A stretch of 41,078 bases of DNA from Candidatus Eiseniibacteriota bacterium (GTDB lineage: Bacteria > Arandabacterota > Arandabacteria > Arandabacterales > Arandabacteraceae), in NCBI GenBank assembly GCA_043810925.1, contig JBDRNT010000038.1:1-41078 (forward strand), in the 5' to 3' direction. Shown here in pieces: positions 13,255 to 41,010 of the stretch. The notes beneath the pieces are model-generated. The model was not told the origin of the DNA, did not search any database, and saw nothing but the letters and a program-made list of their open reading frames with translations. Within the stretch, counting starts at the first letter, position 1, and each line of letters opens with the position of its first letter. Made by a program: the position numbers and the translations under genes.

Positions 13255-13265
13255 CGCCGGATCAA

Positions 13266-15529: not shown

Positions 15530-15714
15530 AGGACTACCTCCCTCGCTGGAATGGTTCACGATAAATGGATTTCTAGAGCGCATCATACCACGAATGCTCG
15601 CTCCAACGCAACGCTCTCTCCCCCCAGGGTCAGGCCTTGAAACTTGGGATTCGCAATGTCGCTTCCGGTCTCGGTGCCCGATAAAAGAGGATCGTTGCGG
15701 ATGGAACCCAGAAG

Positions 15715-17205
15715 TTACGGCCCGCCGAAGCGGCCGGTGTTCTTGTTGTCGTGGCGGTAGCAGGGCCACGGTGAGGTCGCATAGCCCATGCTTGTCGTCT
15801 CAAGTGCCCATAGAAATCCGTGGGGGCCCGGGTTGTTCTTGTGGGTACCGATATAGAGGGTTCCGTCGCTAACGATAGCGGGCGATGACCAGTTGATTCC
15901 TCCAAGCACCGTCTTCCAGTTGAGTGTGCCGTCGGGATTGAGGGCATAGAGACACGCTGTCTCGGCACCGAAGTAGATCAGGCCGTCGGCTCCGACTGTC
16001 GGTGTGCAGTAGACGTCATCCAGAGGGGCCGTGCTCGAATCCTCCTCGACAGAGTACACCCACTTCTCAGTCCCCCACGGGGTCAGGGCAATCACGCTGC
16101 CGCACTTCTCCTGGCAGGCCTTTGTCGATACGTATATCGTGCCGTCAGAGCCGATCGTAGGTGAGCCCCGGACATAACAGTAGTAGCCGTCTACGAAATA
16201 CTTCCACCTGACCGATCCATCCGGGTTGAAGGCCCAGACCCAGGATTCGCCCTGGGCTTCAGTCCCGAGGTAGATGGCGCCGTCATCGTCGATTGCCGGG
16301 GAGGTAAAGGACATCTCGTATTCGTAGGCGAACTTGACATGCCATTTCTCGGTGCTGTCGGGATTCACCGCATAGAAATCGTCCTGGTGTATCGAGAGAT
16401 AGATGGTGCCATCGGCGCCGATCACCGGTGACTGGCGGCAGTTCCTCCACGGTGTCGGGTTAAACCACCAGAGTCGCTCGCCCGTATCCGGGTCCACTGC
16501 ATAGAGCCCGTCAGCGGCGACATAGACTGTGCCATCGGCCCCTATTGCGACCGTTCTTTGGCCCACGGGGTAACCCGAATGATCGGGATTCTCGAAGTCG
16601 TTGAATTTCCATCTCAGTTCGCCTACAGGGGACAGAGCGTAGACATTGCTTCGATAGTCCTGGACGTATACCGTGCCATCCGGGCCGATCGCAGGTGAAT
16701 AGGCGTTGTGTTCGAGATCGTACGACCACTGGATGAAACCTAAGGGGCTCACAGCATAGACCGTACCATAGTCTGTAATCGAGTAGGCCCCGGTGCTTAT
16801 GTATATCGTGCCGTCATCCCCGACGGCCGGTGAGCAGTAATAGACTTCCTTTTCAACCTCGACGGTCCAGAGCACCCTTCGTCGGCATAGCGCCAGCAGC
16901 GTATGGTCTTGCGTGTCCATTACGAAACTGCCGCTGTCCGGCACGATCTCATCGTCCAGAGTGACTACAAGATCGCTGTAGCCCTCCTTGAGAGCATACT
17001 GGTAGTTGATCGTGTCCACCCAGGTGTACTCGGTCTCCTGCGACTCAGGATAGCCCCAGAGACCCCCACACTTGTCCACGGTCAGGGTGTATGACTCCGG
17101 GCCCCCGTTGGACGTATCGGTGGTCTTGTCGCTGCAGCCCGTGATCAAGAGAAGACAAGCTGTAAGGGCGAGCGGAACAACGCTCACCGGACGCCCGACG
17201 TTCAT
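15715..17205 (-). CDS. PQQ-repeat beta-propeller lipoprotein
   Basis: Lipobox LITGC. Repeated G(A/P/D)DGT(I/V)Y(V/I) blades occur more than 8 times. Ribosome-binding site GGAGG. Confidence 0.8.
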   Translation of the reverse strand: MNVGRPVSVVPLALTACLLLITGCSDKTTDTSNGGPESYTLTVDKCGGLWGYPESQETEYTWVDTINYQYALKEGYSDLVVTLDDEIVPDSGSFVMDTQDHTLLALCRRRVLWTVEVEKEVYYCSPAVGDDGTIYISTGAYSITDYGTVYAVSPLGFIQWSYDLEHNAYSPAIGPDGTVYVQDYRSNVYALSPVGELRWKFNDFENPDHSGYPVGQRTVAIGADGTVYVAADGLYAVDPDTGERLWWFNPTPWRNCRQSPVIGADGTIYLSIHQDDFYAVNPDSTEKWHVKFAYEYEMSFTSPAIDDDGAIYLGTEAQGESWVWAFNPDGSVRWKYFVDGYYCYVRGSPTIGSDGTIYVSTKACQEKCGSVIALTPWGTEKWVYSVEEDSSTAPLDDVYCTPTVGADGLIYFGAETACLYALNPDGTLNWKTVLGGINWSSPAIVSDGTLYIGTHKNNPGPHGFLWALETTSMGYATSPWPCYRHDNKNTGRFGGP

Positions 17206-17236
17206 CAGCAGCCTCCGGGAAAGGGTTCGTATGTCA

Positions 17237-20080
17237 TCATCTCAGTGTCTCGATGAGTGCTCTTGCCTGGTCATTCGCCGGATCGATCTTTAGAATGGCC
17301 TCGAGCTCCTTACGGCCCTTCTCCTCGTCCCCATTGGCAAGGTAGAGATTGACGAGATCGAATCTGGCCGGAAGATAGTGTGCATCGATCCTTATGGCTT
17401 CCTTGAAGTGTTTCTCCGAAGCCTTGAAATCCCCGAGCTGACGGTTCAGTATACCCAGGTTGATGTGCACCATGTGCACTTCATGCTCGTAGCCAAGACC
17501 CTCTTCGAGCTCGCGCTTGGCATCTTCGAATTGCCCGCCGCTTGCCAGAATGACCGCGAGACTTGTACGGGCGGGATTGAAACCGGGGTGTATCTTAAGA
17601 GCTTCCCGGTAACACTCGATCGCCTTATCGTTGTCACGCAGGCCCTGATACACCTTTCCAAGGCTGTGCCATCCCTGCAGGCTCAAGGGGTTTATCTCAA
17701 GCGCGGTCTCGAGCTGGGTCTTTGCCGGATTGAATGCGCCTCTGCGGATGTACTCGCCGGCCAGATTGATCCTTGATTCATCATAATCCGGTCTGAGCTC
17801 AACCGATCGCTTGAAAGCGGATAGGGCCTGGTCATGGGACCCCTGCTGGTGGGACACAACCCCCAGATTGAAATAGGCCTCGGCATTTCGTGGGTCCTTC
17901 GCAATGATCTCTCGCGACACTCTGGTTGCATCCGAAAGCCTCCCCAGGTTTATATAGGAGATCGCAAGCATGTTCTGTGCATCTAGAAAGTTCGGATCCT
18001 TCTCAATGGCTTCCTTGAGAACGCTAACAGCCTCTTCCGGCTCACCCTTGTGCACCAATGCATCAGCGATTGATGTCATCACGGTAGCGTTGTCGGGGTC
18101 CTGTGACAGCACTTCCCTCCAGATCTCGATGGCCTTGTCGAACTCAGCGTTTGCGAAGTGGGATGAAGCCAATCTCATCAGGCCGGTTGATCCACTGCCA
18201 CTCCCGCCGATGTAGCCCAGTGCTCTTAAGCGTTCAAGAATCGCCTCTTGTTCGTCCTCGCGTCTGATGACTGATCCGGTGGCTGCCATCGTTCCGTATG
18301 AGTCTATCTCTCCGATTCCGGATGTCGATGCAACCCAGCCTTCATCCAGGGCCTCCTCAAGAATTCTGCCCGGCATGTCGGTGGATGCCGGCAGCCCAAG
18401 GAGTCTCAAGAGGGTGGGGGCGACATCCAGCACCGATGCGTCCGTGAACCTTACACCCCGCTTGATTCTGTTACCGTAGAGCGCAATCGCACCGGCCAGT
18501 CTGTGCCACTTTATCGGCTGACCTCCGCCGATTGCAGAAGGTCCCGCTGGGCGGATATCCCCGCTCTTAAATCCATGATCCGATAGAAGAACGAGCGTGG
18601 TCTCGTCGTCTATGGTGTCAAGCCACTCGCCGATCAGGCTATCCGTGTGGAGGTAGGCCGCCGCCACGGCATGGCCGTATTTCGCAGCGTCCTCATCTGA
18701 GATGTCACTCGTGTGTGGCTCCATATGCTTTATGAAGAGATGGCACACGTTATCGACCATATCGAGATAGACCGAAAAGAGGTCGGGACGGAACTTCTGG
18801 TAGAGATATATGCCTGCTCGCTCATAAGTGATATTGGAGGCTAAGATCAGCCTTAAGTTCCTTATGGGATCAAGCGGATCAAATGTCTTGGCCGTCGGTG
18901 CGATCTCCTCCGGAGTCACATCGATGTATCTCCGGAGTGTCTCGTATGACACGTCCTCATAACCTACTATCATCGGTCTCAGCTCATAGATCAGGCTCTC
19001 GGGAAACGCCAGCCCCGCCACGTCTTCTGTCTCATCGTGAGCACTTTCGTCGTACTCGGCGCTCGTCCAGCGCGGATCGAAGGTGTGAAACACGATTCTG
19101 TCGGATACCATGAACCCTGAGACCGGCTCGGCAGGATAGGTTCCGAGCCACCCTATAAAGCCCGAGGACAGCCCGAACCTCGTTGCGATATTCCAGAGGG
19201 CCGGAACCCTGCGCATGGAACTTGTTATGGGTACGTCTTCACCCGTTGCTTCGTCCTTCTGGAGAAAGTCGATTATGCCGTGGACATGCGGCTCCACACC
19301 TGTGGCCATGGTCGTCCAGATCATTGGGGAAACGAGCGGGTCCATCGAAACAAGATCACCCGTGGCGCCTTCCTGGATAAGCCGTTCAATATTGGGCATG
19401 GGTGTATGCTCTGAGACCTGCTTATAGATCTCCCAGTCGAGCGCATCGCTGCCTATTATGACGACCTTGCCGCCGAGCCGCTCGGCGACCTCGATAATGG
19501 CCGCATCCTGTTCGTCAATGACGAGATCGAGGGACTTAAGCGATACGCTGTGGAGATTGACGCCATAGGTAGCGAGTGACGGCGTCAGCGTCTCGAGCAT
19601 CCCCTGCTCAATCCTCTGGTTATCATCTTCTTTGGAATAGCTGTCAAACACACTGAGATGCCGCCGGAGGTAATCGCTCACCAGCGGGGCGACCAGGTCT
19701 TCCTCATATCTTCCCTGGTAGGATCTATGAAGGGGGCCGACGCGGTCCCGCTCGACGGAAATCTCAAGCACAAGCCCGGCAGCAAGTGTGCCACCGGGGG
19801 TCTGCGATTCCACCTTGATATCTGTGCTGACGGGTTCAACAGGATAGACCGCCGCCCGCTTCCATGGGAGGCGGAGATGAGGTCCAGGCTCAAGGTACTC
19901 CAGTGCCCCGCCGGTCTCAACGACCCCGATCTTCCCACCCGGCACGATCTGGACCGATGCAACAATACCCGCTGCAACTGCAAGAGCCACCACGGCCAGA
20001 ATGCCCATCTTGCGTCCTGAATCTCTCAGAATCTCACCCTCCCGAGGAAGTGCGTCCTCATCATTATAGTCAATGCTCAC
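17237..20080 (-). CDS. multidomain membrane protein: SPFH/band-7-like, then alkaline-phosphatase-superfamily phosphodiesterase-like, then TPR repeats
   Basis: N-terminal TM helix plus a VVETGG...PGPHLRLPW SPFH-like segment. The central domain is paralogous to 6398-8251 (GFMVSDR, SDHGF, LLGLP..DMPGR..EEA, RLRALGYI). The C-terminus has at least 10 TPR motifs. The start codon is uncertain: AGGAGG abuts the GTG. Confidence 0.75.
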   Translation of the reverse strand: MSIDYNDEDALPREGEILRDSGRKMGILAVVALAVAAGIVASVQIVPGGKIGVVETGGALEYLEPGPHLRLPWKRAAVYPVEPVSTDIKVESQTPGGTLAAGLVLEISVERDRVGPLHRSYQGRYEEDLVAPLVSDYLRRHLSVFDSYSKEDDNQRIEQGMLETLTPSLATYGVNLHSVSLKSLDLVIDEQDAAIIEVAERLGGKVVIIGSDALDWEIYKQVSEHTPMPNIERLIQEGATGDLVSMDPLVSPMIWTTMATGVEPHVHGIIDFLQKDEATGEDVPITSSMRRVPALWNIATRFGLSSGFIGWLGTYPAEPVSGFMVSDRIVFHTFDPRWTSAEYDESAHDETEDVAGLAFPESLIYELRPMIVGYEDVSYETLRRYIDVTPEEIAPTAKTFDPLDPIRNLRLILASNITYERAGIYLYQKFRPDLFSVYLDMVDNVCHLFIKHMEPHTSDISDEDAAKYGHAVAAAYLHTDSLIGEWLDTIDDETTLVLLSDHGFKSGDIRPAGPSAIGGGQPIKWHRLAGAIALYGNRIKRGVRFTDASVLDVAPTLLRLLGLPASTDMPGRILEEALDEGWVASTSGIGEIDSYGTMAATGSVIRREDEQEAILERLRALGYIGGSGSGSTGLMRLASSHFANAEFDKAIEIWREVLSQDPDNATVMTSIADALVHKGEPEEAVSVLKEAIEKDPNFLDAQNMLAISYINLGRLSDATRVSREIIAKDPRNAEAYFNLGVVSHQQGSHDQALSAFKRSVELRPDYDESRINLAGEYIRRGAFNPAKTQLETALEINPLSLQGWHSLGKVYQGLRDNDKAIECYREALKIHPGFNPARTSLAVILASGGQFEDAKRELEEGLGYEHEVHMVHINLGILNRQLGDFKASEKHFKEAIRIDAHYLPARFDLVNLYLANGDEEKGRKELEAILKIDPANDQARALIETLR

Positions 20081-20316: not shown

Positions 20317-21552
20317 ATGACTATGAGACAGTACATACGCGCCGCCACAGTGGCGGTGATCGCGGTTCTTCTACTTGTTCCTATTGCCGCCCGATGCCAG
20401 GGGAATCTTGAGATTCACTGCATTGACGTCGGTCAGGGTGACTGCACCCTTGTAATCTCGCCCACCGGCGGGACGCTGCTCTTTGACGCGGGCTGGAACG
20501 CCATGGGGAATTCGGTTGTAATCCCCTATCTTCAGAGCCTGGGCATTACCGGGCTCGATTATGTCTGTTGCTCCCACTATCATGCCGATCATATCGGCGG
20601 CCTGGACGAAGTGGTCAACTCTCTCGGTATAGACTCGCTGAGGGTGGCGGCGCTTGACCGGGGCTGGTCCTATACAACTCTGACGTACTCGGACTACGCT
20701 GCTGCGGTCGCCCCCAAGCGTACGACCATCTTAGACGGCCAGATTATAGACCTGGGTGGCGGCGTGACGGTCACCTGTATCGGCGTGAACGGAAACGGCG
20801 CGCTCTCACCACCGTTTGCAGGATCGGATGACGAGAATGATTACTGTGTCTCGTTGCTTGTCGAGTACGGGGACTTCGAGTTCTTCGTAGCAGGTGATCT
20901 CTCGGGTGTGAACTCATCGAGTTACACCGACATAGAGACTTCAGTAGCTCTTGAAATCGGCGACCTGGATGTTTACAGGGTGGATCACCACGGGAGTGCA
21001 AGCAACTCGAATGCCAATCTCGTATCGACGTTTCAACCCGAGGTTTCTATAATCTCAGTCGGCAGCAACTCTTATGGTCACCCTACCCAGACCGTGCTCA
21101 ATAGACTGGTCTCCTACGGGAGTTACATCTATCAGACCGAAGTTGGCAGCGGCGGCACCATACCGCCGGGTGAGGGAGAAGTCGTCGGTGGACATGTCGT
21201 CATAGTAGTCGGGGCCGGCCAGTATACGGTGGACGGAGACCCTTATGATCTCGGTTCATCCGGTGTCCGGATTGCCGGCCGTGAGATCTCCCTTAAGGTC
21301 TTCCCCAATCCCTTTACCAGTCAGACTACATTCGGATTCAGCGTGCCCGAGGAAGGTCGTGTCACGCTTGATGTCTTTGACACTACCGGCCGGTTCATTA
21401 ACGGGTTCTCAACTCCGGGATCTGCCAGCTCCTCCGGAACGCTGACCTGGGACGGCCGCACGTTCTCGGGTGAGAGTGTGTCTCCCGGAGTCTATTTCGT
21501 GCGTCTCCGGGGTGCATCCGCGGTGACGGCTCACAAGGTCGTAAAGAGGTAA
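20317..21552 (+). CDS. secreted MBL-fold (ComEC-C-terminal-like) hydrolase with T9SS-type C-terminal sorting domain
   Basis: Signal peptide. Motifs IDVGQGDCTLV and HYHADHIGG. C-terminal FPNPFTSQT...VTLDVFDTTGR...WDGR...GVYFVRL...KVVKR, which is FlgD-Ig / T9SS CTD-like. Confidence 0.8.
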   Translation: MTMRQYIRAATVAVIAVLLLVPIAARCQGNLEIHCIDVGQGDCTLVISPTGGTLLFDAGWNAMGNSVVIPYLQSLGITGLDYVCCSHYHADHIGGLDEVVNSLGIDSLRVAALDRGWSYTTLTYSDYAAAVAPKRTTILDGQIIDLGGGVTVTCIGVNGNGALSPPFAGSDDENDYCVSLLVEYGDFEFFVAGDLSGVNSSSYTDIETSVALEIGDLDVYRVDHHGSASNSNANLVSTFQPEVSIISVGSNSYGHPTQTVLNRLVSYGSYIYQTEVGSGGTIPPGEGEVVGGHVVIVVGAGQYTVDGDPYDLGSSGVRIAGREISLKVFPNPFTSQTTFGFSVPEEGRVTLDVFDTTGRFINGFSTPGSASSSGTLTWDGRTFSGESVSPGVYFVRLRGASAVTAHKVVKR

Positions 21553-30837: not shown

Positions 30838-30899
30838 AGTGTTCCTCCATTCTTTACTGTGACCGCCACCTTTAGTATCTTACTCTATAGGGGAATGTG

Positions 30900-33107
30900 A
30901 TGAAACCTATTTACCTCGACTACAACGCGACCACGCCGATCGACCGGCGTGTGGCAGATGCGATGTTGCCCTTTATCACCGAACACTTCGGCAACCCTTC
31001 GAGCGGTCACGCCTACGGCGTCGCTACGAGAAAGGCTGTAGAGAAGGCCCGCGGGCAGGTGGCGGGTTTCCTGGGGTGTGAGGTATATGAAGTGGTCTTC
31101 ACAAGCGGCGGTTCAGAGAGCAACAACCACGCGATAAAGGGAGCGGTCCTCGCATATGCCGACAAGGGCAACCACATCATCACCTCAGCGGTTGAACACC
31201 CGGCCGTGATCGAAGTCTGCAGGTATCTGGAAAAGCACCACGCATGTGACGTCACCTATCTTCCCGTTGACGCACATGGTCTGGTGGACCCCAAAGAGGT
31301 TGAAGCTGCGATCACGCCGCGCACTCTGCTAATCACAATCATGCATGCCAATAACGAGGTGGGCACGGTTGAGCCCATAAAGGAAATTGCCTCGATCGCC
31401 CGCGCTCATGATGTTTTCCTCCACACGGATTGTGCGCAGTCTGCGGGGAAGATACCCGTTGACGTGGACGAACTTGGTGTCGACCTGCTTTCGTTGGCGG
31501 GTCACAAGATTTATGCGCCGAAGGGCGTTGGTGCACTTTATGTACGCAGCGGCGTCCGCCTTGAAAAACTGATCCACGGGGCAGCACAGGAGATGAAATG
31601 GCGGGCCGGTACCGAGAATGTGATCGAGATAGTCGGCCTCGGTGAGGCCTGCGACTTGATTGCCGGCGACCTCGACGAACACAGTGACCGGATGAAGCAG
31701 ATGCGTGATCGGCTTGAGAAGGGAATCAAGGACAGGTTTCCGGACATCAGGATCAACGGGCATCCGGAGAAGCGTTTGCCCAATACTCTGAGTGTGAGTT
31801 TCAGGGGGCTTGAGGCCAACACCATTCTCTCGGAACTCTCCGGTGTGGCCGCTTCTGCGGGAGCGGCCTGCCATAGTGACCGGGTGGAGATCTCAGATGT
31901 GCTTGCCGCGATGCGGGTGCCGATGGACTATGCGATGGGGACCATCCGGTTCTCGGTGGGCCGCTTCACGACACCCGACGAAATAGACCGGGCGATTGAG
32001 GAGATCACGAAGGTTGTGGGAGGAATGGCCCGCGGAGAAGCCCTCATCTCAGCCGAGCCGGTCACCGGGAAGGTGAAGCTGACTCAATTTACACACGGGC
32101 TTGGGTGTGCGTGCAAACTCCGGCCACAGGTTCTTGAAAAGATCCTGGCAAAGATACCGGTTTCACATGATGAGAATGTGCTGGTGGGGACGGACACTTC
32201 CGACGATGCGGCCGTCTACCGGATCGATAAGAAGACCGCGATTGTACAGACGGTTGATTTCTTCACGCCGGTCGTCGACGATCCGTTTCAGTTCGGTGCG
32301 ATCGCGGCGGCAAATTCACTTAGCGATATCTATGCGATGGGTGCGAAGCCCCTTTTCGCTTTGAGTGTTGTCGGGTTTCCGAGTAACCGGCTTCCGGTTG
32401 AAGTGCTGGAAGAGATCTTGAGCGGGGCACGATCAAAAGCCGGTGAGGCGGGAATAGACATTATCGGCGGTCACACCGTGGATGACACCGAGCCCAAGTT
32501 CGGTCTGGCGGTCAGCGGTGTCGTCGATCCCGAAAGGATCGTGACCAATCGAGCTGCCAGACCCGGTGACGTCCTCGTTCTGACCAAACCGATTGGGACG
32601 GGCATACTTGCCACGGGTCTCAAACAGGGGCTGCTGGATGCCTGCCAGATCGACACGCTTGTGGAGACCATGGCGACCTTGAACATGCGTGCCGCCGAAG
32701 CGATGCTGGATGTTGGCGTCAACGCCTGCACGGATGTCACCGGTTTCGGCCTCCTGGGGCACCTGCTGGAGATGATGACCGGTTCGGGTACTGCGGCTGT
32801 GTTAGAGGTAAGCAACGTCCGGTTTCTGCCGGGCGCCGTGGAACTCGTCACGTCCGGCGTCATCCCGGGTGGAACGCGCAACAATATGGAGTATACGGCC
32901 CCGTCGGTGAAGTATGCAGACGGGGTCCCCGAGATCAAGCGCGTGCTCTTAAACGACGCCCAGACCTCGGGTGGGCTTCTGATATCGCTCCCGGCCAAAC
33001 AGGTTGAGGCCTTGATGGATCGGCTCCGCGAAAAGGGTGTGGAAGGGGCAAGTGTGGTGGGCAGGGTTGTTACGGGAGGCGGCCCGAAGATCACGGTCGA
33101 AAGGTAG
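30900..33107 (+). CDS. selD: fusion protein: cysteine desulfurase/selenocysteine lyase (NifS-like) joined to selenophosphate synthetase (SelD)
   Basis: Residues 1-~385 carry SLAGHKIYAPKG (PLP Lys) and SAGAACHSD (active-site Cys). From about residue 395 the sequence KVKLTQFTHGLGCACKLRPQVLEKIL...VLVGTDTSDDAAVYRI matches the E. coli SelD N-terminus ([20 protein letters not shown]). There is no stop between the two domains. Ribosome-binding site AGGGGA. Confidence 0.85.
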   Translation: MKPIYLDYNATTPIDRRVADAMLPFITEHFGNPSSGHAYGVATRKAVEKARGQVAGFLGCEVYEVVFTSGGSESNNHAIKGAVLAYADKGNHIITSAVEHPAVIEVCRYLEKHHACDVTYLPVDAHGLVDPKEVEAAITPRTLLITIMHANNEVGTVEPIKEIASIARAHDVFLHTDCAQSAGKIPVDVDELGVDLLSLAGHKIYAPKGVGALYVRSGVRLEKLIHGAAQEMKWRAGTENVIEIVGLGEACDLIAGDLDEHSDRMKQMRDRLEKGIKDRFPDIRINGHPEKRLPNTLSVSFRGLEANTILSELSGVAASAGAACHSDRVEISDVLAAMRVPMDYAMGTIRFSVGRFTTPDEIDRAIEEITKVVGGMARGEALISAEPVTGKVKLTQFTHGLGCACKLRPQVLEKILAKIPVSHDENVLVGTDTSDDAAVYRIDKKTAIVQTVDFFTPVVDDPFQFGAIAAANSLSDIYAMGAKPLFALSVVGFPSNRLPVEVLEEILSGARSKAGEAGIDIIGGHTVDDTEPKFGLAVSGVVDPERIVTNRAARPGDVLVLTKPIGTGILATGLKQGLLDACQIDTLVETMATLNMRAAEAMLDVGVNACTDVTGFGLLGHLLEMMTGSGTAAVLEVSNVRFLPGAVELVTSGVIPGGTRNNMEYTAPSVKYADGVPEIKRVLLNDAQTSGGLLISLPAKQVEALMDRLREKGVEGASVVGRVVTGGGPKITVER

Positions 33108-33259: not shown

Positions 33260-33754
33260 GTGCCATCAGCAGAGGATCATCTGAAAGACGCATTTGCAGG
33301 CGAGTCACAGGCAAATCGTAAATACCTGGCGTATGCCGAGAAGGCGGACCGCGATGGACAGCCCCAGGCTGCCAGGCTCTTTAGAGCTGCCGCGGCGGCT
33401 GAAACCGTGCATGCCCACAACCACCTGCGAGCACTTAAGGCGATAGGAAGCACCGAAGCCAATCTCAAGGACGCGATCGCGGGTGAGACTCATGAATTCA
33501 AGAGTATGTACCCCGAGATGATCGAGCAGGCCAAGGCCGAAGGCCACAAGGACGCGGAAAGGTCTTTTCACTTCGCTCTTGAAGTAGAGAAGATCCACGG
33601 CGCACTCTACCAGAATATGCTCGACAATCTTGGCTCTGTGGGTGACTTCCCCTACTATGTATGCCCCGTCTGCGGCTTTACTGCCGAGCGAGGTGCGCCT
33701 GATACGTGCCCCGTATGTGGAACCAAGGGCACTATGTTTAAGAAGGTCGAGTGA
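33260..33754 (+). CDS. rbr: rubrerythrin
   Basis: Diiron ferritin-like EAxxH motifs (AAETVHAHNH, ALEVEKIHGALY) plus a C-terminal rubredoxin-like CPVCG...CPVCG. GTG start after AAGGGAGAG. Confidence 0.9.
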   Translation: MPSAEDHLKDAFAGESQANRKYLAYAEKADRDGQPQAARLFRAAAAAETVHAHNHLRALKAIGSTEANLKDAIAGETHEFKSMYPEMIEQAKAEGHKDAERSFHFALEVEKIHGALYQNMLDNLGSVGDFPYYVCPVCGFTAERGAPDTCPVCGTKGTMFKKVE

Positions 33755-33798
33755 CGGTTGCGGGGCTCGGCCCTGTGACAAGAAAGGGATAGGCCGGA

Positions 33799-34293
33799 AT
33801 GGATGCCGAGGGCCGGGACCGCGTGATTCAAGACGAGGTCGTCGTGGAGGCCGGTCTTGATGCCGTCTGGGACGCGTGGACCACCAGTGAGGGTATTAAG
33901 TCGTTTTTCGCGCCGGCATGTAGCATCGATCTCCGGGTGGATGGTGCCTATGAGATGCTGTTCGATCCGGGCGCTGAGCCGGGGAGCCGTGGCGGCGAGG
34001 GTGTGCGGATACTCGCGATCGAGCCGAAGACGATGCTCTCGTTTACCTGGAACGCCCCGCCTCATCTTGCGAATGTGCGAAAACAGTGGACCCACGTGGT
34101 TATCCGGCTTGAGGCTGCGGGTGCGGGCCGGACCAGGGTGAGGATGATCCATGACGGCTGGGGAGAGGGCGAGGAGTGGGATCAGGCATTTGAGTACTTC
34201 ACACGGGCGTGGAAGCAGATGGTGCTGCCACGCCTCAGGTATAGATTCTCCACAGGTCCTGTTGACTGGGAGAACCCGCCCAGGTTCGAGTAG
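33799..34293 (+). CDS. SRPBCC (AHSA1/polyketide-cyclase-like) domain protein
   Basis: About 160 aa with the pattern EAGLDAVWDAWTTSEGIKSFF...KTMLSFTW... Confidence 0.6.
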   Translation: MDAEGRDRVIQDEVVVEAGLDAVWDAWTTSEGIKSFFAPACSIDLRVDGAYEMLFDPGAEPGSRGGEGVRILAIEPKTMLSFTWNAPPHLANVRKQWTHVVIRLEAAGAGRTRVRMIHDGWGEGEEWDQAFEYFTRAWKQMVLPRLRYRFSTGPVDWENPPRFE

Positions 34294-34307
34294 GAGGCAC
34301 TTCACAG

Positions 34308-34898
34308 ATGTTTCACAATATGCCGAAGCAGATTCTCAAACGGATGCAGTATCTCGAGCGTCTGGATGCCCGCCACAGGAAACAGGATATCTCCCACCTT
34401 AAACGGCTTCGCCAGATACCACCCGCGACGGGCAAGTTCCTTGCCCTGGTGGCGGCGAGTGCCCCGGATGGGACCTATCTTGAGATTGGGACGAGCGCGG
34501 GGTATTCCACGCTCTGGCTTACCCTTGCATGCCGGGAAGTGGGGAGGAAGATAACAACGTTCGAGGTGCTCGAAGAGAAAGCCTCGCTGGCGATGGAGAC
34601 TTTCAAGCAGGCGGGTGTTGAAGCCATTGTCGATCTCGTGACAGGTGATGCGCGTCAGCACCTTGCTGGTTACAAGGATGTCGCATTCTGCTTTCTCGAT
34701 GCCGAGAAGAAGTACTACAACGAATGCTTTCAAGCCGTGGTCCCCAACATGGTTCCCGGCGGGATCCTCGTCGCCGATAACGTGATCACCCACCAGGAGA
34801 TTCTCAAGGGTATGGTGGCGAAGGCCCTCAAGGATAAACGCGTCGATTCGATGATCGTCCCCATAGGATCGGGCCTACTCATGTGCCGGAAATTCTGA
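34308..34898 (+). CDS. class I SAM-dependent O-methyltransferase (family 3, caffeoyl-CoA OMT-like)
   Basis: LEIGTSAGYSTLWLTLA (SAM-binding motif I), FCFLDAEKKYY and GGILVADNV. Confidence 0.75.
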   Translation: MFHNMPKQILKRMQYLERLDARHRKQDISHLKRLRQIPPATGKFLALVAASAPDGTYLEIGTSAGYSTLWLTLACREVGRKITTFEVLEEKASLAMETFKQAGVEAIVDLVTGDARQHLAGYKDVAFCFLDAEKKYYNECFQAVVPNMVPGGILVADNVITHQEILKGMVAKALKDKRVDSMIVPIGSGLLMCRKF

Positions 34899-35050: not shown

Positions 35051-36184
35051 ATGCGTATAGGCATCATTATGGGTCTGGCGGCGCTACTGCTCCTGGCCCT
35101 ACCCGTTCTGGCAGTACAGCGTGCGGTCCTCATCGAGGACTTCACGAACTCTGGGTGACCTGGCTGTGACGCCATCAAAGATGAGATGAACGTTATCTTT
35201 GATGAGTATCCGGGGCAGGTTGTCCCGATTCGAATTCACACCTGGTGGCCAAGTTCTGTCGATCAGTTCTTTGTTTTCGCGTACCCGGAAGACTCCCTGC
35301 GGGTAAGGTTCTACGGCGGGCTTACTCCGTGGACTGCGTATTACTACACACCCAGTTTCCGGTTTGACGGCAAGTATGTCTCGGACCCATCGGATAGTAC
35401 AAGTACTGGGGGCGATATGTGGCCGACGTATGCTTCCTGGTACGCCCGGACCCGAGAGGTAATCGACAGTCTTCTCACCGTTCCGAGTCCGCTGAGGATA
35501 AGCGTCACACGGAATTGCTTCAGTCCTGACAGTGATTCAGTCTACGTGGATTTCGATGTTGTCGCCGAGGATGACGCCGACTACAATCAGAATCTGTATC
35601 TCGCGGTGACCGAGTGGAGGCATCGATATACTTTCCCGACCGGAACGCACGATCACGCCCTGAGAGACTATGTTCCGGATCAGGACGGTATGGCAATAGG
35701 CCCGATGCTTTCCGGTGACTCACTCCACTTCGAGTGGGACTACATCGTCTACCCGGAGTACTGGCATGCAGCGAGTGGTACCTCACGCGTGAATACCAAC
35801 CTCTTCGTCCAGCGAGCGGGTACGAGAAAGGTCCAGCAAGCGTGGACCGGACATCCGGGAGAGTTTGAAGACCCGGTTTCCGGTGTCGCCATTCCCCGTT
35901 TGGCAGACGCGATCTGGCTGGGCAAGAACTCGCCTAATCCATTCAGCGAGCAGACGAGTATAGCGTACAACGTCAGGCGTGCCGGACATGTTCGTCTGTC
36001 GGTCTATACGCTTGAAGGAAGGCTTGTGGCTGATCTCGTCGACGGCCAGGTTGACCCCGGCTCTTATGCAGCTGATTGGGATGGTCGAGACCGCTTCGGA
36101 CACGAAGTCGGAAGCGGGGTCTATTATTTCAGTCTGAAGCAAGACAAGTCTGCCCAAACAGGTAAGATGATCGTACTTCGCTAG
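35051..36184 (+). CDS. candidate selenoprotein: exported thioredoxin-fold protein (U-P-G-C) with T9SS-type C-terminal domain; in-frame TGA at 35156-35158 read as Sec
   Basis: ATG 35051 is preceded by GGAAGGAGG. It encodes signal peptide MRIGIIMGLAALLLLALPVLA and runs to TGA in the same frame as the 35186 ORF. The context EDFTNSG-U-PGCDAIKDEMNVIFDEYPGQ is thioredoxin-like. The C-terminus LGKNSPNPF...WDGRDRFGHEVGSGVYYFSL...MIVLR is a T9SS CTD. Confidence 0.5.
35173..35204 (+). promoter_or_regulatory. stem-loop 14 nt downstream of the in-frame UGA (candidate bacterial SECIS)
   Basis: Perfect 10-bp inverted repeat CATCAAAGAT (35173-35182) / ATCTTTGATG (35195-35204). It extends by a G-U and an A-U pair to give an 8-nt apical loop GAUGAACG. 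Confidence 0.4.
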
Positions 36185-36195
36185 GAAAGAAGAAA

Positions 36196-36230
36196 AGAGC
36201 TGGGGGCCAGGGGTCTCCAGCTCTTTCTAT
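36196..36230 (+). terminator. candidate intrinsic terminator after the 35051-36184 gene
   Basis: AGAGCTGG (36196-36203) / CCAGCTCT (36217-36224) form an 8-bp stem with a 13-nt loop, followed by TTTCTAT. Confidence 0.45.
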
Positions 36231-36367
36231 ACCTTGCGGAACGGGCCCGGTACGGCTTAGGACAGGGACAGGCATTTAGGTGGTTGGCGTGGACGCCACA
36301 AGGTCTTATACTTAGGGTAATGGGTAGATTGGAAGACACAGTGAAAGCAAGACTCTTACCTGCGCAT

Positions 36368-36886
36368 ATGGCCGCCATGGGCTTTGTCGTATTGCTCATG
36401 GTTGCGGCCGCGGTCTCGCCGTTAAGAGCGGGACCGGCCCCCGACTTCACGCTTCCCAACATCGATGGAAAGGATGTCACGCTTTCCGAGGCGTTGTCGG
36501 AGGGTCCGGTGATCATCGACTTCTGGGCGACATGGTGTAAGCCCTGCATCAAAGGGTTCCCGAGTCTCCAGGGGATTTATGACAAGTACCGCGAGCGTGG
36601 ACTCAGGGTGTTTGCAATCTCTGTTGACAGTCCCCGGTCGCGGGCGCGTGTAGGTCCGCTGATTCGATCGAAGAAGTACACCTTCGAAGTTCTTCTGGAC
36701 ACGCAGGGCCGCGTCGCCAAGAAGTATAACGCGGTCGCACTTCCACGGACGGTGCTCCTTAATACTGACGGCGAGATCGTGCTTGCGACGGTGGGTTACC
36801 GGCCGTCAAATCATGAAAAGCTCGAAGAAGCACTGCTGCCAATCCTGCAAGCCAAGGCCGGCGAGGATACCAAAGGTGCCGACTGA
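36368..36886 (+). CDS. TlpA/ResA-like thiol:disulfide oxidoreductase (thioredoxin fold, WCKPC), membrane-anchored or exported
   Basis: VIIDFWATWCKPCIKGFPSLQGIYDKY and VFAISVDS motifs. N-terminal hydrophobic anchor MAAMGFVVLLMVAAAV. The start is uncertain: GTG 36341 and TTG 36284 are alternatives. Confidence 0.8.
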   Translation: MAAMGFVVLLMVAAAVSPLRAGPAPDFTLPNIDGKDVTLSEALSEGPVIIDFWATWCKPCIKGFPSLQGIYDKYRERGLRVFAISVDSPRSRARVGPLIRSKKYTFEVLLDTQGRVAKKYNAVALPRTVLLNTDGEIVLATVGYRPSNHEKLEEALLPILQAKAGEDTKGAD

Positions 36887-38360
36887 TCGTTTTCTCCCCA
36901 CGGTATGTCTGGTCATTGTTATAGCGGCGGTATCTGTCGTATGGACCAGTCCGGTTGGTGCCCTTGAGACGGGTGCGAGGGGCGCAGTATCAGGTGAAGG
37001 TCTCCTCAACACCGATGAGGGGGCGAGAGTTGTCGATGCGAGAGTCGACTTCGATATAGATGTAGACTTCCTGACCTTCGGAGGGGCCTACCGGTTCTAT
37101 GATTTCGGAAACAAGAACTACAACCCTGCGGGCATAGATGCCGTCGATCATCTGAAGCACCGGTACTTAGCGGGCGAGATCCGCGGCCTCTTCTTCAGGG
37201 CGGGTCACTTCTTCTCGACCTTCGGCAGGGGACTCACGCTGAGGAGTTTCGAAGATCCCGGTCTTGAACACGATACATCACTCGACGGCATCATAGCGGA
37301 GTACGAGACCGGACCCGTGAGAGTCACCGGGCTTACCGGTATGATAACCGAGCGGCTGACGGGCCTGCAATCCCGGGAGCACAATGTGCGGGGTGGAAGA
37401 GCCCGGGCCGGTGTCGGTGACATACTTGCTGTTGCGGTAAGCGGTCTCGACCGGAGCACAAAGAGACGAGATGAACAGGTAGTTTTGCCCGATAGTCTTA
37501 CGAGCTTCAGCGACAACGTGATTGGGGCCGAAGTCGAGGTCTGGCATGGGCCGCTGTCGCTGGTCGGTGAATATGCCCGAAGAGACGGTGACTACTATCA
37601 CGGACTCGAGCAAGACGGTGAAGGCGGCAGCGCAACATATCTCTCCGGGAGTCTGGCTACGAACCTGCTCACGCTGCTTGGGGAATACAAGGACTATGAC
37701 AGGTTTGAAAATACACTGGTGAATCCCCCCATCTGTGTCAAGGAACACGTGTGGATTTTGATGAACAGGGTGACGCACCAGGTCAGCTTTGATAACGAAA
37801 GAGGGTTTCTGCTTGAGGGCACGCTTTCTGCGAGCGAGAACGTACAGCTTACCGGTGGAGCCTCTGAAGCTCGGACCCAGGGAGGCAGTCTCGGACACTG
37901 GGAGATCTTCGGCCAGGTCGATCAGCCGCTTCCGGGTTGGGGGATCAGATCGTTTGCCGGATCGTGGTCGAGGGAATACCTGTACGGCAAGTTCACCGAA
38001 AACATCAGTTGTGGGCTCGATCTCGAGATTTCATTGCCCTCCCAACACGTGGTGGAGGTGGGGATCGAGGCACAGACAATAAAGGAGCCTTCACTGGACT
38101 CGCATGAGAATTACATGGCATCGGCTGCGCTTTATCCCTGGCCGAGCGTGACGCTTGCCGCCACTGGAGAGCTGACCACCGAGGAAGGGCTCGAACGCGA
38201 CAAGTGGCTCTTCGGTGAGGCCAGGGTATCGGTAGGGGGAGATTTCGAGGTATCTCTTGGTGCCGGGAGCGAACGTGGCGGTAAGAAGTGTAGCGGTGGC
38301 ATTTGCTACACGGAACCTGAGTTCGCAGGCGTTAGACTGCGCTTCTCGGCCTTCTTCTAG
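36876..38360 (+). CDS. putative outer-membrane beta-barrel protein
   Basis: Signal-like N-terminus FLPTVCLVIVIAAVSVVW. Alternating beta-strand pattern. The C-terminus ends ...VRLRFSAFF with an aromatic final residue. A GTG start at 36876 after GAGGA overlaps the TlpA-like stop, which suggests translational coupling. Confidence 0.5.
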   Translation: MPTDRFLPTVCLVIVIAAVSVVWTSPVGALETGARGAVSGEGLLNTDEGARVVDARVDFDIDVDFLTFGGAYRFYDFGNKNYNPAGIDAVDHLKHRYLAGEIRGLFFRAGHFFSTFGRGLTLRSFEDPGLEHDTSLDGIIAEYETGPVRVTGLTGMITERLTGLQSREHNVRGGRARAGVGDILAVAVSGLDRSTKRRDEQVVLPDSLTSFSDNVIGAEVEVWHGPLSLVGEYARRDGDYYHGLEQDGEGGSATYLSGSLATNLLTLLGEYKDYDRFENTLVNPPICVKEHVWILMNRVTHQVSFDNERGFLLEGTLSASENVQLTGGASEARTQGGSLGHWEIFGQVDQPLPGWGIRSFAGSWSREYLYGKFTENISCGLDLEISLPSQHVVEVGIEAQTIKEPSLDSHENYMASAALYPWPSVTLAATGELTTEEGLERDKWLFGEARVSVGGDFEVSLGAGSERGGKKCSGGICYTEPEFAGVRLRFSAFF

Positions 38361-38428
38361 GGGCCCGGAATAATGGCGGCTACCGGATGGAGTTTGATGC
38401 ATCGTAATGAAAGAGGGATAGAAGGGTG

Positions 38429-39481
38429 ATGAAAGTACTCAGATTGGTGCTGGTTGCGGCGGTTTGCATTCCTGCCGCGTGTGACTGGTTCGAGGAGCCG
38501 GTCGAGGCCAATCTACACCCGGAAACGAGATTCCTTGCATGCGCCTCCGGCTTGGAGGTGTTTGAGGGTGATGACGTGAGGTTTGAGTGGGTGGGTAGTG
38601 ACGTGGACGGCACGGTAAACCGTTATGAGTGCGCTTACGATGGCTCACCATGGACATCCACTGCCGGGCTGGATACCATCATCTCAGATGTAACACTGGG
38701 CGAACACACCTTGCGGGTGAGATCTGTTGACGACCACGGGGATGTGGATCCCACACCGGCTGAATGCAGTTTCACTGTGACTGAACCCGGAAGCTCTGTC
38801 GATAGAGTCGTCCATCTGGAGCTCTTCACCGCGACCTGGTGCAGGTTCTGCCCCAAGGCGGAAATCGCCCTGAATAGCCTGCTTGATGAGTATGGTCCGG
38901 ACAGGCTCAGCGTTATCGCTTTCCACGGTACGCCGGACCGGGATCCGTTTGCCACTGAAGAAACAGAGGCACGAATCATCTGGCATTTCAGCGATCCCAG
39001 CTTCCCGGGCGATCGAGACGTAATCCCGACGGTTGTCATCGACGGGCTGAGATATGTGCAAGGGGCGGCCACGGCCGAAGAGGCTGAGGCCTACTACCGG
39101 GCGGAGATCGAGTTGCGTATGGCACTCGGATCGCCGCTTTCGATCAGGACGGTGGGAGAGATAGGGTCGAGCACAGGATTGGTGAGCGCCGTGGTAAAGG
39201 TCGAGGATCATCTTGAGGAGGGTGATCGCCTGGTCCGCTTTGCAGTGATAGAGGATGACATATTCTACATAGGTCCATACTCGCTTGAGTATGACTTCGT
39301 TTCGCGGGATCTGCCCGCCGATGAGCCCTTTGACCTTGTTGTGGTCGGGGACTCGATGACGGTCGAGAGGCAATTCTCGGTGGACGGATCATGGAACCCT
39401 GAGCACATGGATGTGATTGTATTTGTGCAAGATATGACCACGAGAGAGGTCTTGCAGTCAGCCAGGCTGCGGCGTGAATGA
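38429..39481 (+). CDS. exported Ig-like plus thioredoxin-like (WCRFC) domain protein; Cys-paralog of the 35051-36184 candidate selenoprotein
   Basis: Signal peptide. LELFTATWCRFCPKAEIALNSLLDEYGPDRLSVIAFH aligns with LIEDFTNSGUPGCDAIKDEMNVIFDEYPGQVVPIRIHT. Downstream, SPLSIRTV in this protein matches SPLRISV in the other. Confidence 0.7.
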   Translation: MKVLRLVLVAAVCIPAACDWFEEPVEANLHPETRFLACASGLEVFEGDDVRFEWVGSDVDGTVNRYECAYDGSPWTSTAGLDTIISDVTLGEHTLRVRSVDDHGDVDPTPAECSFTVTEPGSSVDRVVHLELFTATWCRFCPKAEIALNSLLDEYGPDRLSVIAFHGTPDRDPFATEETEARIIWHFSDPSFPGDRDVIPTVVIDGLRYVQGAATAEEAEAYYRAEIELRMALGSPLSIRTVGEIGSSTGLVSAVVKVEDHLEEGDRLVRFAVIEDDIFYIGPYSLEYDFVSRDLPADEPFDLVVVGDSMTVERQFSVDGSWNPEHMDVIVFVQDMTTREVLQSARLRRE

Positions 39482-39567
39482 GACCTGGGAGCGCGATTCC
39501 GGGCTGTCATAATGGCTGAAATTGTGATATAATAGATGCGGTTTATAACGCGGAGGGAACGAACCAC

Positions 39568-40944
39568 ATGAGACTGGGAGATTCGGGACGGTCTGCAGTG
39601 ATTGCTGCCGGCGTGATGATCGCGCTGATGGCCGGAGCAGCTTCTGAAGCCTTAGCGGTGCGTGATATCGAGATGACCACCGTAGATTACGCGGGCACGA
39701 TGATCTACTGGTTTCCGGTAGTCTTCTACACGGCAATCGAGAACACGGGAACGGAAGGCAGCACGGTTGATCTTCATCTTGAGAAGAACCTGCCTGGTGG
39801 ATGGGCTTCGGACATGTGTATTGACGGCGACTGCATTCCAAATGATGGGTTCCTCTATCTGGCACCGGGAGAAGTGGAGACGGTGTTGGTAGATGTGACT
39901 GTGGGTGGTTCGCAGAATATGGGTCTTGAGACGATGACGGCGACGGTGCGCCAGGAGCCTTCGATAGTCAAGAGCCAGACCTACGCCGCATTTGCCCAGC
40001 TCCCGTCGTTTTTGCTCGTGGATGATGATAACGGTGCCGGCTACGAAACCTATTTGAAAACGGCCATCGAGGCTGCGGGCTACAAGGTGCGTGTCTGGGA
40101 TGCCGACTCACTCGGTAGACCGGGTCCGATACAGCTCCTGTCCTACTGGGGGGTGTTCTGGACAACGGCCGACGGTAATGCCGGTTACATAACCTCGGGT
40201 GACGAGCAGGACATGATGACATATCTTGATAGCGGTGGGAGACTCTTCCTGGCGAGCATGGACCTTCTGAGCAGCCGGGGCGGGGCCACGACTTTTACGA
40301 CCAACTACCTTCATGCCGCATCGTGGATGAATAACACCGGCGCTGCGACCGTATCGGGCATATCCGGTGACCCCATCTCCGACAGTATGGTACTTCCGCT
40401 TACCGCAGGACCGTTTTCGGCGGGTAACACCGACAACATGACCCTTAACTCACCGTCGGATTCGATTTTTGTGGGTGCAACCGGCATAAGCGGGCTCAAG
40501 GTGGAGGAGAGCGCCCACCAGCTCGTCTTCCTGTCCTATCCTTTTGAGGACGTAAGCACGAGCGCACCCGATCCTGATAACCAGGCGACTCTGATATCCC
40601 GTGTGATCGGCTGGTTCGATCCGCCGACAGCCGGGGTGGATAGCAAGCCCGATCTTCCCCAGGATGAACTTGTGCTCGGACAGAACAGTCCGAACCCGTT
40701 TAAGACCTCGACCGGGATCTCGTTCGCTGTTCCGAGGGGAAGCCGGCATACCGAGTTGGTGGTTTACGATGTCAAGGGGCGGGTGGTTAAGACGCTGATT
40801 AACGGTGCACCTTCGGCGGCAGGGAGCCGGATTGCATGGGATGGCAGAGATGATGCCGGAGCACCTGTCGCATCGGGCGTCTATTTCTATAAGATTACAG
40901 CCGACCGGGCCAGCGCCATAAAAAAGATGGTGATGCTGAGATAG
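39568..40944 (+). CDS. secreted protein with T9SS-type C-terminal sorting domain (function unknown)
   Basis: Signal peptide ...AASEALA. C-terminal LGQNSPNPFKTSTGISF...VVYDVKGR...WDGRDDAGAPVASGVYFYKI...MVMLR. Confidence 0.75.
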   Translation: MRLGDSGRSAVIAAGVMIALMAGAASEALAVRDIEMTTVDYAGTMIYWFPVVFYTAIENTGTEGSTVDLHLEKNLPGGWASDMCIDGDCIPNDGFLYLAPGEVETVLVDVTVGGSQNMGLETMTATVRQEPSIVKSQTYAAFAQLPSFLLVDDDNGAGYETYLKTAIEAAGYKVRVWDADSLGRPGPIQLLSYWGVFWTTADGNAGYITSGDEQDMMTYLDSGGRLFLASMDLLSSRGGATTFTTNYLHAASWMNNTGAATVSGISGDPISDSMVLPLTAGPFSAGNTDNMTLNSPSDSIFVGATGISGLKVEESAHQLVFLSYPFEDVSTSAPDPDNQATLISRVIGWFDPPTAGVDSKPDLPQDELVLGQNSPNPFKTSTGISFAVPRGSRHTELVVYDVKGRVVKTLINGAPSAAGSRIAWDGRDDAGAPVASGVYFYKITADRASAIKKMVMLR

Positions 40945-40969
40945 TATCATATGACCCCATGAGGCTTCT

Positions 40970-41010
40970 GATCCCCCTGGTGGGGATCGGGGGCCTTCTG
41001 GGATTTTATT
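40970..41010. terminator. candidate bidirectional terminator hairpin
   Basis: GATCCCC (40970-40976) / GGGGATC (40983-40989) form a GC-rich stem, followed by CTTCTGGGATTTTATT. It sits between the 39568-40944 stop and an apparent minus-strand stop at 41010-41012. Confidence 0.4.

Follow-up and report, generated by a model that had tools for sequence, protein, structure and literature searches.

A conserved gene cluster of Candidatus Eisenbacteria that joins HBP35/Omp28-like thioredoxin-fold proteins to a TlpA-type protein and a predicted DUF6029 barrel

Contig JBDRNT010000038.1, from a Candidatus Eisenbacteria metagenome-assembled genome (MAG), was analysed over its whole length of 41,078 bp, referred to here as the window. 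Near its right-hand end are five consecutive plus-strand genes (genes 1 to 5; Table 1) that a first-pass annotation, made from the letters alone, had proposed to form a redox module of exported thioredoxin-fold proteins and an outer-membrane barrel; all five are open reading frames with the extents reported for them, apart from the start of gene 2 discussed below. We lean, with modest confidence, towards the view that the cluster encodes a dedicated module of thiol/selenol oxidoreductases of the cell envelope, with thioredoxin-fold proteins related to HBP35 and Omp28 at its core. Its members are a periplasmic TlpA-type reductase, a predicted barrel, a lipoprotein with a CxxC motif, and cargo of the T9SS type (T9SS, type IX secretion system) that carries the same thioredoxin module with either selenocysteine (Sec, U) or cysteine, and the genes are conserved, co-directional and in part coupled. 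A catalytic redox role is favoured because the active-site geometry of thioredoxin is strictly conserved in all of the paralogues and because the exported member has acquired Sec repeatedly.

Conservation of the gene order

The barrel gene (gene 3) served as the anchor for collecting related loci, of which six contexts came from exact protein look-up and 44 from contigs of one genome per species. All were annotated with the window proteins as phmmer queries, and the total is 49 non-redundant loci (numbered with the prefix L) from Eisenbacteria, Gemmatimonadota, TA06 and unclassified MAGs. The first-pass annotation had suggested looking for the neighbourhood in related genomes, and the same order is indeed found in these 49 loci, far past close relatives and across three or more phyla. 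A TlpA homologue lies directly upstream of the barrel gene in all 44 loci that could be assessed, a count that takes into account that the TlpA genes of the window and L001 had been scored negative by the script only for their overlap with the next gene. Directly downstream of the barrel gene, 41 of 42 loci encode a lipoprotein with one or more immunoglobulin-like (Ig) domains and an Omp28-like CxxC module, the exception being TA06 and four divergent cases having been judged by eye. A protein with the gene-5-type domain and a T9SS-type C-terminal domain (CTD) is present in 34 of 34 loci.

This arrangement extends to a distant group with 26-30 % barrel identity, which comprises Gemmatimonadota (L042, L045-L048) and other MAGs (L039-L041, L043, L044, L050). 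The flanks are unrelated between loci and consist of SelD and rubrerythrin genes, of glycosyltransferases, or of a helix-turn-helix (HTH) protein, thioredoxin, peroxiredoxin, YkuD and deoxynucleoside kinase set. An independent anchor, the gene 5 homologue P0229 of TA06, likewise adjoins genes for TlpA, DUF6029 and a gene-1-type selenoprotein. Mere phylogenetic inertia as the cause of the gene order was rejected on these three grounds: retention at such low identity in other phyla, the unrelated flanks and the independent anchor. The TlpA stop codon overlaps or abuts the barrel start throughout the loci and, as judged from this arrangement, the TlpA gene is translationally coupled to the DUF6029 barrel gene.

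Were the barrel a Wzi-like protein of polysaccharide export or surface assembly, the redox genes could be only syntenic with it and there would be no functional module. Gene 3 is a clear PF19494 (DUF6029) member that has a signal peptide and ends in an aromatic residue, and the sole paper that we found to mention DUF6029 reports that by HHpred it is similar to 18-strand barrels of the Wzi type, and raises the export of polysaccharide as a speculation (PMC9603273); glycosyltransferase genes also flank the cluster in L002 and L053. Such a passenger status nevertheless appears very improbable, given that the four-component order persists across phyla at the low barrel identity and amid the unrelated flanks mentioned above, that the TlpA and barrel genes are coupled, that no OPX, Wzx or Wzy genes are conserved beside the cluster in the six contexts, and that domain fusions join members other than the barrel.

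Table 1. Features of the gene cluster, in window coordinates
Feature	Position	Strand	Remarks
Gene 1, secreted selenoprotein (predicted), 377 aa	35051..36184	+	Signal peptide; HBP35/Omp28-like thioredoxin + beta-sandwich module with U-P-G-C; T9SS-type CTD
In-frame UGA of gene 1, predicted Sec codon	35156..35158	+	Orthologues with TGA or Cys at the same codon
SECIS-like hairpin core	35171..35206	+	Begins 13 nt past UGA; extended helix 35153-35225
T9SS-type CTD of gene 1	about 35921-36181	+	TIGR04183, FlgD_ig
Stable hairpin 3' of gene 1	36191..36228	+	-26.5 kcal/mol, z -2.7 (direct folding); then UUUCUAU
Gene 2, TlpA/ResA-like thiol-disulfide reductase	36320..36886	+	DFWATWCKPC; Pfam AhpC-TSA, Redoxin
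Gene 3, DUF6029 outer-membrane beta-barrel (predicted), 494 aa	36876..38360	+	PF19494; signal peptide; C-terminal F
Gene 4, lipoprotein, 350 aa	38429..39481	+	Lipobox Cys; PKD/FN3-like Ig domain; HBP35/DUF1223/Omp28-like module with W-C-R-F-C-P
Gene 5, secreted protein, 458 aa	39568..40944	+	Signal peptide; Ig-like (~30-145); GATase1-like (~148-350); T9SS-type CTD
Intrinsic-terminator-like hairpin 3' of gene 5	40956..41002	+	-36.9 kcal/mol, z -3.86, 0/200 shuffles as stable; then AUUUUAUU

The thioredoxin-fold proteins and selenocysteine

Gene 1 had been described as a Sec-containing, thioredoxin-like T9SS protein, a description that is borne out by its single in-frame TGA, by Cys-containing orthologues and by a CTD that passes the TIGR04183 cutoff. 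The TGA codon stands in the context FTNSG-U-PGC, 14 residues past the signal-peptide cleavage site. TGA occupies the same codon in orthologues of L001, L002, L003 (three copies), L014, L016 (two), L020 (two) and TA06 L053, and Cys is found there in L002b, L004 and L009; 12 gene-1-type orthologues have TGA and three have Cys, and the upstream signal peptide is retained. The hairpin past the UGA has a minimum free energy of -33.3 kcal/mol (z -4.85, with none of 200 shuffled sequences as stable), and among 11 Sec-containing orthologues its stem, which resembles a selenocysteine insertion sequence (SECIS), has compensatory changes in 6 of 13 pairs. Because the UGA aligns with Cys in orthologues and the SECIS-like hairpin covaries, gene 1 is predicted to be a genuine selenoprotein gene. 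A true stop codon followed by re-initiation at the ATG at 35186, or a pseudogene, was considered and rejected in view of the conserved upstream signal peptide and FTNxG sequence, the Cys orthologues and the covarying hairpin. An Rfam scan of the window gave no match, including to any SECIS family, so no curated SECIS family lends support, and protein-specific bacterial SECIS elements need not have an Rfam family. Public gene calls cut the gene-1-type genes in two, into pieces of 35 aa and about 320-327 aa.

A SelD gene lies 2 kb upstream of gene 1 as part of a NifS-like/SelD fusion (30897-33107, plus strand). We note that this 736 aa protein has a cysteine-desulfurase/selenocysteine-lyase-like part (Aminotran_5) joined to SelD (AIRS/AIRS_C), that the SelD active-site loop contains Cys and no Sec (GLGCACK), and that the Aminotran_5-SelD fusion is also found upstream of the cluster in L004 (246-2447). 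Between gene 1 and gene 2 there is a gap of 135-183 nt with a weak promoter-like site at 36284-36312. The hairpins reported past genes 1 and 5 were both recovered by direct folding, and neither is listed in a consensus terminator scan of the window; the one past gene 1 may be a terminator or attenuator that sets gene 1 apart from genes 2 to 5.

Gene 1 and gene 4 are barely related by BLASTP (24 % identity, E 0.035). In hhalign profile-profile comparisons their modules match with 99.5 % probability (E 1.8e-22), the gene 1 module matches that of a third, fused type of protein described below with 99.8 %, and the fused-type module matches that of gene 4 with 100 % (E 1.5e-49), which confirms at the profile level that the three module types are homologous. 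The earlier description of gene 4 as an exported protein with an Ig-like domain and a WCRFC thioredoxin-like domain therefore stands, but it is only a distant paralogue of gene 1, and it is a lipoprotein. Its alignment has four invariant residues of interest, C18 (the Cys of the lipobox, AAC|DWFE or AGC|DWF), C138, C141 and P142, and the motif P-x-V/F-x-F/I-D-G that contains the cis-proline is kept in all three paralogue types.

Whether these domains fold as thioredoxins had been put forward as a check by structure prediction. An AlphaFold2 model of gene 4, built from a 25-sequence alignment (pLDDT 89), has an N-terminal Ig domain followed by a canonical thioredoxin core and a beta-sandwich. 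Helix 141-155 of the core has C138-x-x-C141 at its N-terminus, and strand 201-204 is preceded by the conserved Pro200. By hhalign, the gene 1 domain is homologous to that of gene 4. In a Foldseek search of the PDB the top match of this model is 5Y1A, HBP35 of Porphyromonas gingivalis (E 3.5e-12, 247 columns, TM 0.54/0.60), followed by 2AXO, the DUF1223 protein Atu2684 (8e-10), and lower down by the Omp28 domain 2R2C (3.9e-5). The gene 4 profile searched against PDB sequences finds 2AXO at 3.3e-9 across both domains, and 5Y1A at a marginal 1.4e-3 and around the CxxC only. Genes 1 and 4 are thus members of the HBP35/Omp28/DUF1223 thioredoxin-like superfamily, gene 4 by model and profile and gene 1 through its hhalign link. 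HBP35 is a T9SS cargo on the cell surface whose reduction of insulin in vitro needs both active-site Cys residues, and which binds hemin via a region other than the CxxC; its authors suggested that it has a part in the redox status of the surface, but obtained no phenotype, and gave Neisseria PilB as a parallel (PMC2907840).

The lipobox Cys of the gene 4 type is followed by acidic sequence, C-D-W-F-E-D/E in Eisenbacteria and C-K-D-E, C-R-D-D, C-Q-D-K or C-F-E-D in the distant group. These acidic residues resemble, though in other phyla, the export signal K-(D/E)2 or S-D-D-D-D by which lipoproteins of Bacteroidota become surface-exposed (PMC5080379).

The exported members are organized in two ways. 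Within the clade of the window, the TlpA gene is preceded by between one and three copies of gene 1, which has an Omp28-like module and a CTD, and gene 5 consists of an Ig domain, an alpha/beta domain and a CTD. The second Eisenbacteria clade and the distant group have no gene 1, and there the gene 5 homologue is 670-700 aa long and starts with an Omp28-like module; this fused architecture (U/CxxC Omp28-like, Ig, GATase1-like, CTD) was seen in about 20 loci. The fusion of an Omp28-like module to the gene 5 architecture suggests that gene 5, which has no redox motif of its own, is functionally tied to the redox module. The gene 5 model (pLDDT 88.5) contains Ig, alpha/beta and CTD parts, of which the central domain has a GATase1-like alpha/beta fold, as in the middle domain of A4 beta-galactosidases and in ThuA-like proteins. 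Activity as an amidotransferase is ruled out, because among 47 homologues no Cys or His is invariant or nearly so and there is no catalytic Cys-His-Glu triad; the residues that are conserved among them are VDDD151-154, W198, GG223-224 and E327.

The CTD of gene 5 also passes the TIGR04183 (T9SS type A sorting domain) cutoff, and the gene is rightly seen as the second T9SS-CTD gene of the cluster: with a cutoff of 23, gene 1 scores 24.5 bits and gene 5 scores 29.3. Both exceed the FlgD_ig cutoff of 27 (27.9 and 46.7 bits) and both fall below the cutoff of 27 for Pfam Por_Secre_tail (18.6 and 24.3 bits). Our literature search found nothing on T9SS in Eisenbacteria. A third CTD-bearing secreted protein of the contig, with a metallo-beta-lactamase fold, is encoded at 20317-21552 (plus strand). 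In the Gemmatimonadota-type clusters L043 (10593-11357), L044 (10874-11719) and L039 (10670-11545) an extra protein of ~250-290 aa is encoded between the lipoprotein and the fused selenoprotein, with an Ig-like domain, a CTD and a conserved C-x(4-6)-C (e.g. QVCLRQICFPDS, AVCIGTVCTPDS).

A census of the redox motifs shows that only the members with a CTD switch between Sec and Cys, and that they do so at the first redox position alone, G-[U/C]-x-x-C in the gene-1 type and W-[U/C]-G-Y-C-P in the fused type; the lipoprotein always has C-x-x-C(P) and never Sec. Among fused-type proteins there are 16 Sec and nine Cys forms. A mini-hairpin (e.g. CGCC-CGUGC-GGCG) occurs at a fixed distance from the UGA in 16 of 16 Sec forms and is less consistent in the Cys forms (means of -9.6 and -7.4 kcal/mol; one-sided Mann-Whitney p = 0.011, a statistic that ignores phylogeny). 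The sequence A-R-[A/E]-A-L is found at this site in almost all of the fused Sec forms, and the Cys forms are variable. Three of the latter, at L035 10863, L037 1991 and L025 9965, still have a SECIS-like mini-hairpin, and its retention suggests recent replacement of Sec by Cys in these proteins. There are also fused-type selenoproteins encoded well apart from TlpA and barrel genes: a 2.45 Mb contig (L051) has at 5545-18049 a tandem array of at least four such genes, away from TlpA and DUF6029 genes, three of which are called as 38-39 aa plus 617-629 aa and are probably split selenoproteins.

The TlpA-type protein, the barrel and flanking genes

Gene 2 matches Pfam AhpC-TSA (2e-25, 89.6 bits) and Redoxin (9e-21, 74.6 bits) above cutoff. 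The best-scoring named-subfamily models are ResA, StoA, DsbE and TlpA, all with scores below their cutoffs (97.6 against 170, 78.4 against 210, 47.8 against 123 and 45.6 against 230, respectively), and we therefore place it as a family-level TlpA/ResA/DsbE member by sequence, with no named orthologue. The protein has a hydrophobic N-terminus, and DFWATWCKPC and the cis-proline (the Pro of LPRTV) are invariant in its alignment; WATWCKPC is present in 41 homologues. The first-pass assignment to a TlpA/ResA-like WCKPC family thus holds for family and motif, but not for the start: of the two candidates 36320 (188 aa) is most likely the correct one, rather than 36368, as it fits the orthologues better and gives an N-terminus, MGRLEDT, in common with that of L001. 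A CcdA/DsbD_TM-type protein is encoded at 1-272 of L003 (595-1233 of L011, which is on the same contig), ~5 kb upstream of the cluster and beside CdhD-like and ferredoxin genes. TlpA might receive its electrons from this protein, but the position of the gene is not conserved.

Gene 3, annotated earlier as a putative barrel, ends in FSAFF, overlaps the gene 2 stop codon by 11 nt and matches PF19494 with 85.2 bits (cutoff 27), mainly over its N-terminal half (residues 58-280). An identical NCBI entry, 'DUF6029 family protein', derives from Candidatus Eisenbacteria, and PF19494 is found on all 120 of the gene 3 homologues listed. Near the C-terminus, just ahead of the last strand, is the motif GGKKC-SGG-IC-YTEPEF, and its general form GG-x-x-C-x-G-G-x-C-x-x-E-P-x-F occurs in 47 of 47 homologues, including the independently found TA06 barrel; the terminal F/Y is likewise conserved in the 47. 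A third Cys, C287, is not kept in the distant group. A crude beta-moment scan shows at least 12 amphipathic segments and is too rough to give the number of strands, and a PDB sequence search with the barrel profile had zero matches even at E 10.

Several genes recur around the cluster. In the window, rubrerythrin, an AHSA1/SRPBCC-like protein and an O-methyltransferase are encoded directly upstream of gene 1 (33260-34898, plus strand), in the same order as in L001 (1-1279), and rubrerythrin is also present in L004. Gene 5 is followed by an operon for a molybdoenzyme of the xanthine dehydrogenase family (FAD_binding_5, Fer2, Ald_Xan_dh_C/MoCoBD) in L001 (12083-15494), L002 (10853-14469) and L004 (12822-16439), a region that lies outside the window, whose contig ends at 41078 just past gene 5; a radical-SAM gene often also follows gene 5 in window-type loci. 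With SelD upstream and the molybdoenzyme operon downstream, this could be a selenium-utilization neighbourhood with a selenium-dependent molybdenum hydroxylase. Ahead of the second-type Eisenbacteria cluster L005 (4624-5984) are genes for an ArsR-type HTH regulator, a thioredoxin, a second AhpC/TSA-family protein, a YkuD transpeptidase and a deoxynucleoside kinase, and the same region is found in L006, L017-L019, L021, L023, L025, L027-L032, L034-L036 and L049. The regulator, thioredoxin and peroxiredoxin trio may be a linked oxidative-stress unit.

Possible function and relation to known systems

We infer electron exchange among these proteins, arrival of the CTD proteins at the surface and a role for the barrel, along the following lines. 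TlpA would be supplied with reducing equivalents by a CcdA/DsbD-type membrane protein whose gene lies elsewhere, and would hand them on to the CxxC lipoprotein, to the U/CxxC cargo during its time in the periplasm, or to both. After export by a T9SS the cargo would stay attached to the cell surface, where its selenol/thiol pair could reduce or isomerize external disulfides or other oxidized substrates, with Sec providing nucleophilicity and resistance to over-oxidation. The barrel might be the outer-membrane partner, acting as a docking site, as a conduit for substrate or reductant, or as a relay through its invariant Cys pair, and the GATase1-like and Ig domains would form a non-catalytic scaffold or binding module.

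The closest counterparts of the individual parts are instructive. Gene 2 shares with the CcdA/DsbD to TlpA/ResA/CcmG pathways a membrane-anchored periplasmic thioredoxin fold, a WCxPC-type motif and the cis-proline. Known targets of TlpA/ResA/CcmG-type proteins are apocytochrome c, ScoI/CoxB and spore-cortex proteins, whereas the partners of gene 2 are a barrel, an HBP35-like lipoprotein and T9SS cargo selenoproteins, and there is no ccdA or dsbD in the cluster. The surface-located HBP35 (PG0616/PGN0659) has the architecture of gene 1, a CxxC thioredoxin-like domain, a beta-sandwich and a T9SS CTD, although it has Cys where gene 1 has Sec; its sequence similarity to gene 4 is marginal and its hemin-binding role may not apply to the cluster. 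HBP35 is not known to be part of a TlpA-barrel-lipoprotein cluster. PilB of Neisseria (Trx-MsrA-MsrB) is, like the module, associated with the envelope or outer membrane and draws electrons through a TlpA-like thioredoxin domain of its own, but it is a single fused polypeptide that faces the periplasm and ends in methionine-sulfoxide reductase, with no barrel, T9SS or Sec. The families NF045500 ('Omp28-related selenoprotein'), NF033782 ('Omp28 family outer membrane lipoprotein'), PF11551 (Omp28) and PF06764 (DUF1223) belong to the same superfamily as genes 1 and 4 and the fused type, with weak but consistent matches; they describe single proteins, in contrast to the four-component cluster seen here.

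The main rival to a redox enzyme system is ligand capture or uptake, in which the U/CxxC pair or the beta-sandwich of the HBP35-like modules binds heme, a thiophilic metal (Cu, Hg, Zn or Cd) or Se/S species, TlpA keeps the ligand-binding Cys or Sec reduced and the barrel is an import channel. There is a parallel in Bradyrhizobium, where TlpA keeps ScoI and CoxB reduced. The closest solved structure is that of HBP35, which binds hemin and whose mutant grows poorly when hemin is limiting, a surface lipoprotein with a barrel is the usual uptake layout in the Fibrobacteres-Chlorobi-Bacteroidetes (FCB) group, the cargo genes vary from one to three copies in the cluster with tandem arrays elsewhere (L051), and SelD genes are near certain loci. 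We nonetheless hold this explanation to be rather unlikely: the region with which HBP35 binds hemin is not that of the CxxC, and the His residues put forward as hemin-binding are no conserved feature here, a Pfam scan detects no TonB-dependent plug or receptor domain in the barrel, the CxxC and cis-proline geometry is strictly kept in all paralogues, and recurrent Sec is typical of catalytic redox sites.

Less likely still, like the passenger reading considered above, is a role confined to maturation or quality control, with TlpA and the lipoprotein ensuring that the U/CxxC cargo, or T9SS cargo of any kind, has the proper reduced or isomerized form before it leaves the periplasm, the barrel as an anchoring partner and no redox turnover outside. 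T9SS cargo folds in the periplasm before export, proteins of the TlpA/ResA/CcmG type are typically dedicated reductants for specific maturing substrates, no electron path across the outer membrane is required, and the gene order and the fusions are accounted for equally well. What makes this role doubtful is that it leaves unexplained both the selection for a canonical and often Sec-containing thioredoxin site in the exported protein and the invariant Cys pair of the barrel, and that fused-type selenoproteins occur away from TlpA and the barrel.

Several points weigh against the thiol/selenol oxidoreductase module that we favour. The evidence on its proteins comes from genes, sequence comparisons and, for genes 4 and 5, structure models, and gene 3 is a barrel predicted from sequence. 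Matches to the curated families of the superfamily fall below cutoff (34.9 for Pfam Omp28, 30.7 for DUF1223, and 200 and 150 for NCBIfam Omp28_seleno and lipoprot_Omp28): gene 4 scores 24.6, 18.2, 62.2 and 42.8 bits respectively, and gene 1 scores 20.6 with Omp28_seleno and 21.9 with lipoprot_Omp28. The best-supported phenotype of HBP35 is hemin utilization. A search of all loci for CcdA/DsbD_TM genes found one in only 1 of 49, the L003 protein mentioned above, so such a gene is not part of the module. Within the window there are no genes for T9SS machinery (SprA, PorV, PorU etc.), no selA or selB and, by ARAGORN, no tRNA-Sec, so that surface display and Sec insertion rest on the signals only. 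We also know of no mechanism that carries thiol reducing power across an outer membrane, and a surface enzyme might therefore be single-turnover or use external reductants.

As to the families themselves, fused homologues score 45-58 bits with Omp28_seleno, and certain of them match Pfam Omp28 at 1.4e-27. Membership of Omp28_seleno was ruled out for all of the window and locus proteins tested, which score 20-62 bits with this model and hence do not belong to the NF045500 equivalog.

The most far-reaching version of the proposal is a trans-envelope thiol/selenol relay that would run from CcdA/DsbD to TlpA, to the CxxC lipoprotein, and through or on the DUF6029 barrel with its C-x-G-G-x-C to a T9SS-anchored Sec module turning over on extracellular substrates. 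We think this relay improbable as it stands; if true, it would be the first system dedicated to supplying the outer face of a diderm cell with the means to reduce disulfides, and it would include the first bacterial selenoenzyme that is displayed on the surface and has a recharging pathway of its own.

The first-pass annotation did not recognize the cluster as a described system. Searches for literature on Omp28 selenoproteins, on T9SS-linked selenoproteins and on selenocysteine in Eisenbacteria found nothing relevant, and no description of the module was found in the searchable literature, so that the statement holds for the module but not for its parts, which are of known families (TlpA, HBP35/Omp28/DUF1223 and DUF6029). 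To our knowledge, extracytoplasmic reducing pathways reach only as far as the periplasm. Known parts in a module with no description point to a TlpA-type extracytoplasmic reducing pathway that may be extended to the outer membrane or cell surface, with a selenoprotein as its terminus.

The cluster points to redox chemistry that is organized at the outer membrane or outside it in several little-known phyla of the FCB group, and it offers a genomic context and testable partners for the thioredoxin domain of HBP35 and Omp28. The pairing with TlpA, seen throughout this barrel set, is a first strong functional association for DUF6029. The cargo proteins make up a family of bacterial selenoproteins that are secreted and probably displayed on the surface. 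They include many natural Sec/Cys pairs, and gene callers systematically split them into pieces of 35-39 aa and roughly 320-630 aa.

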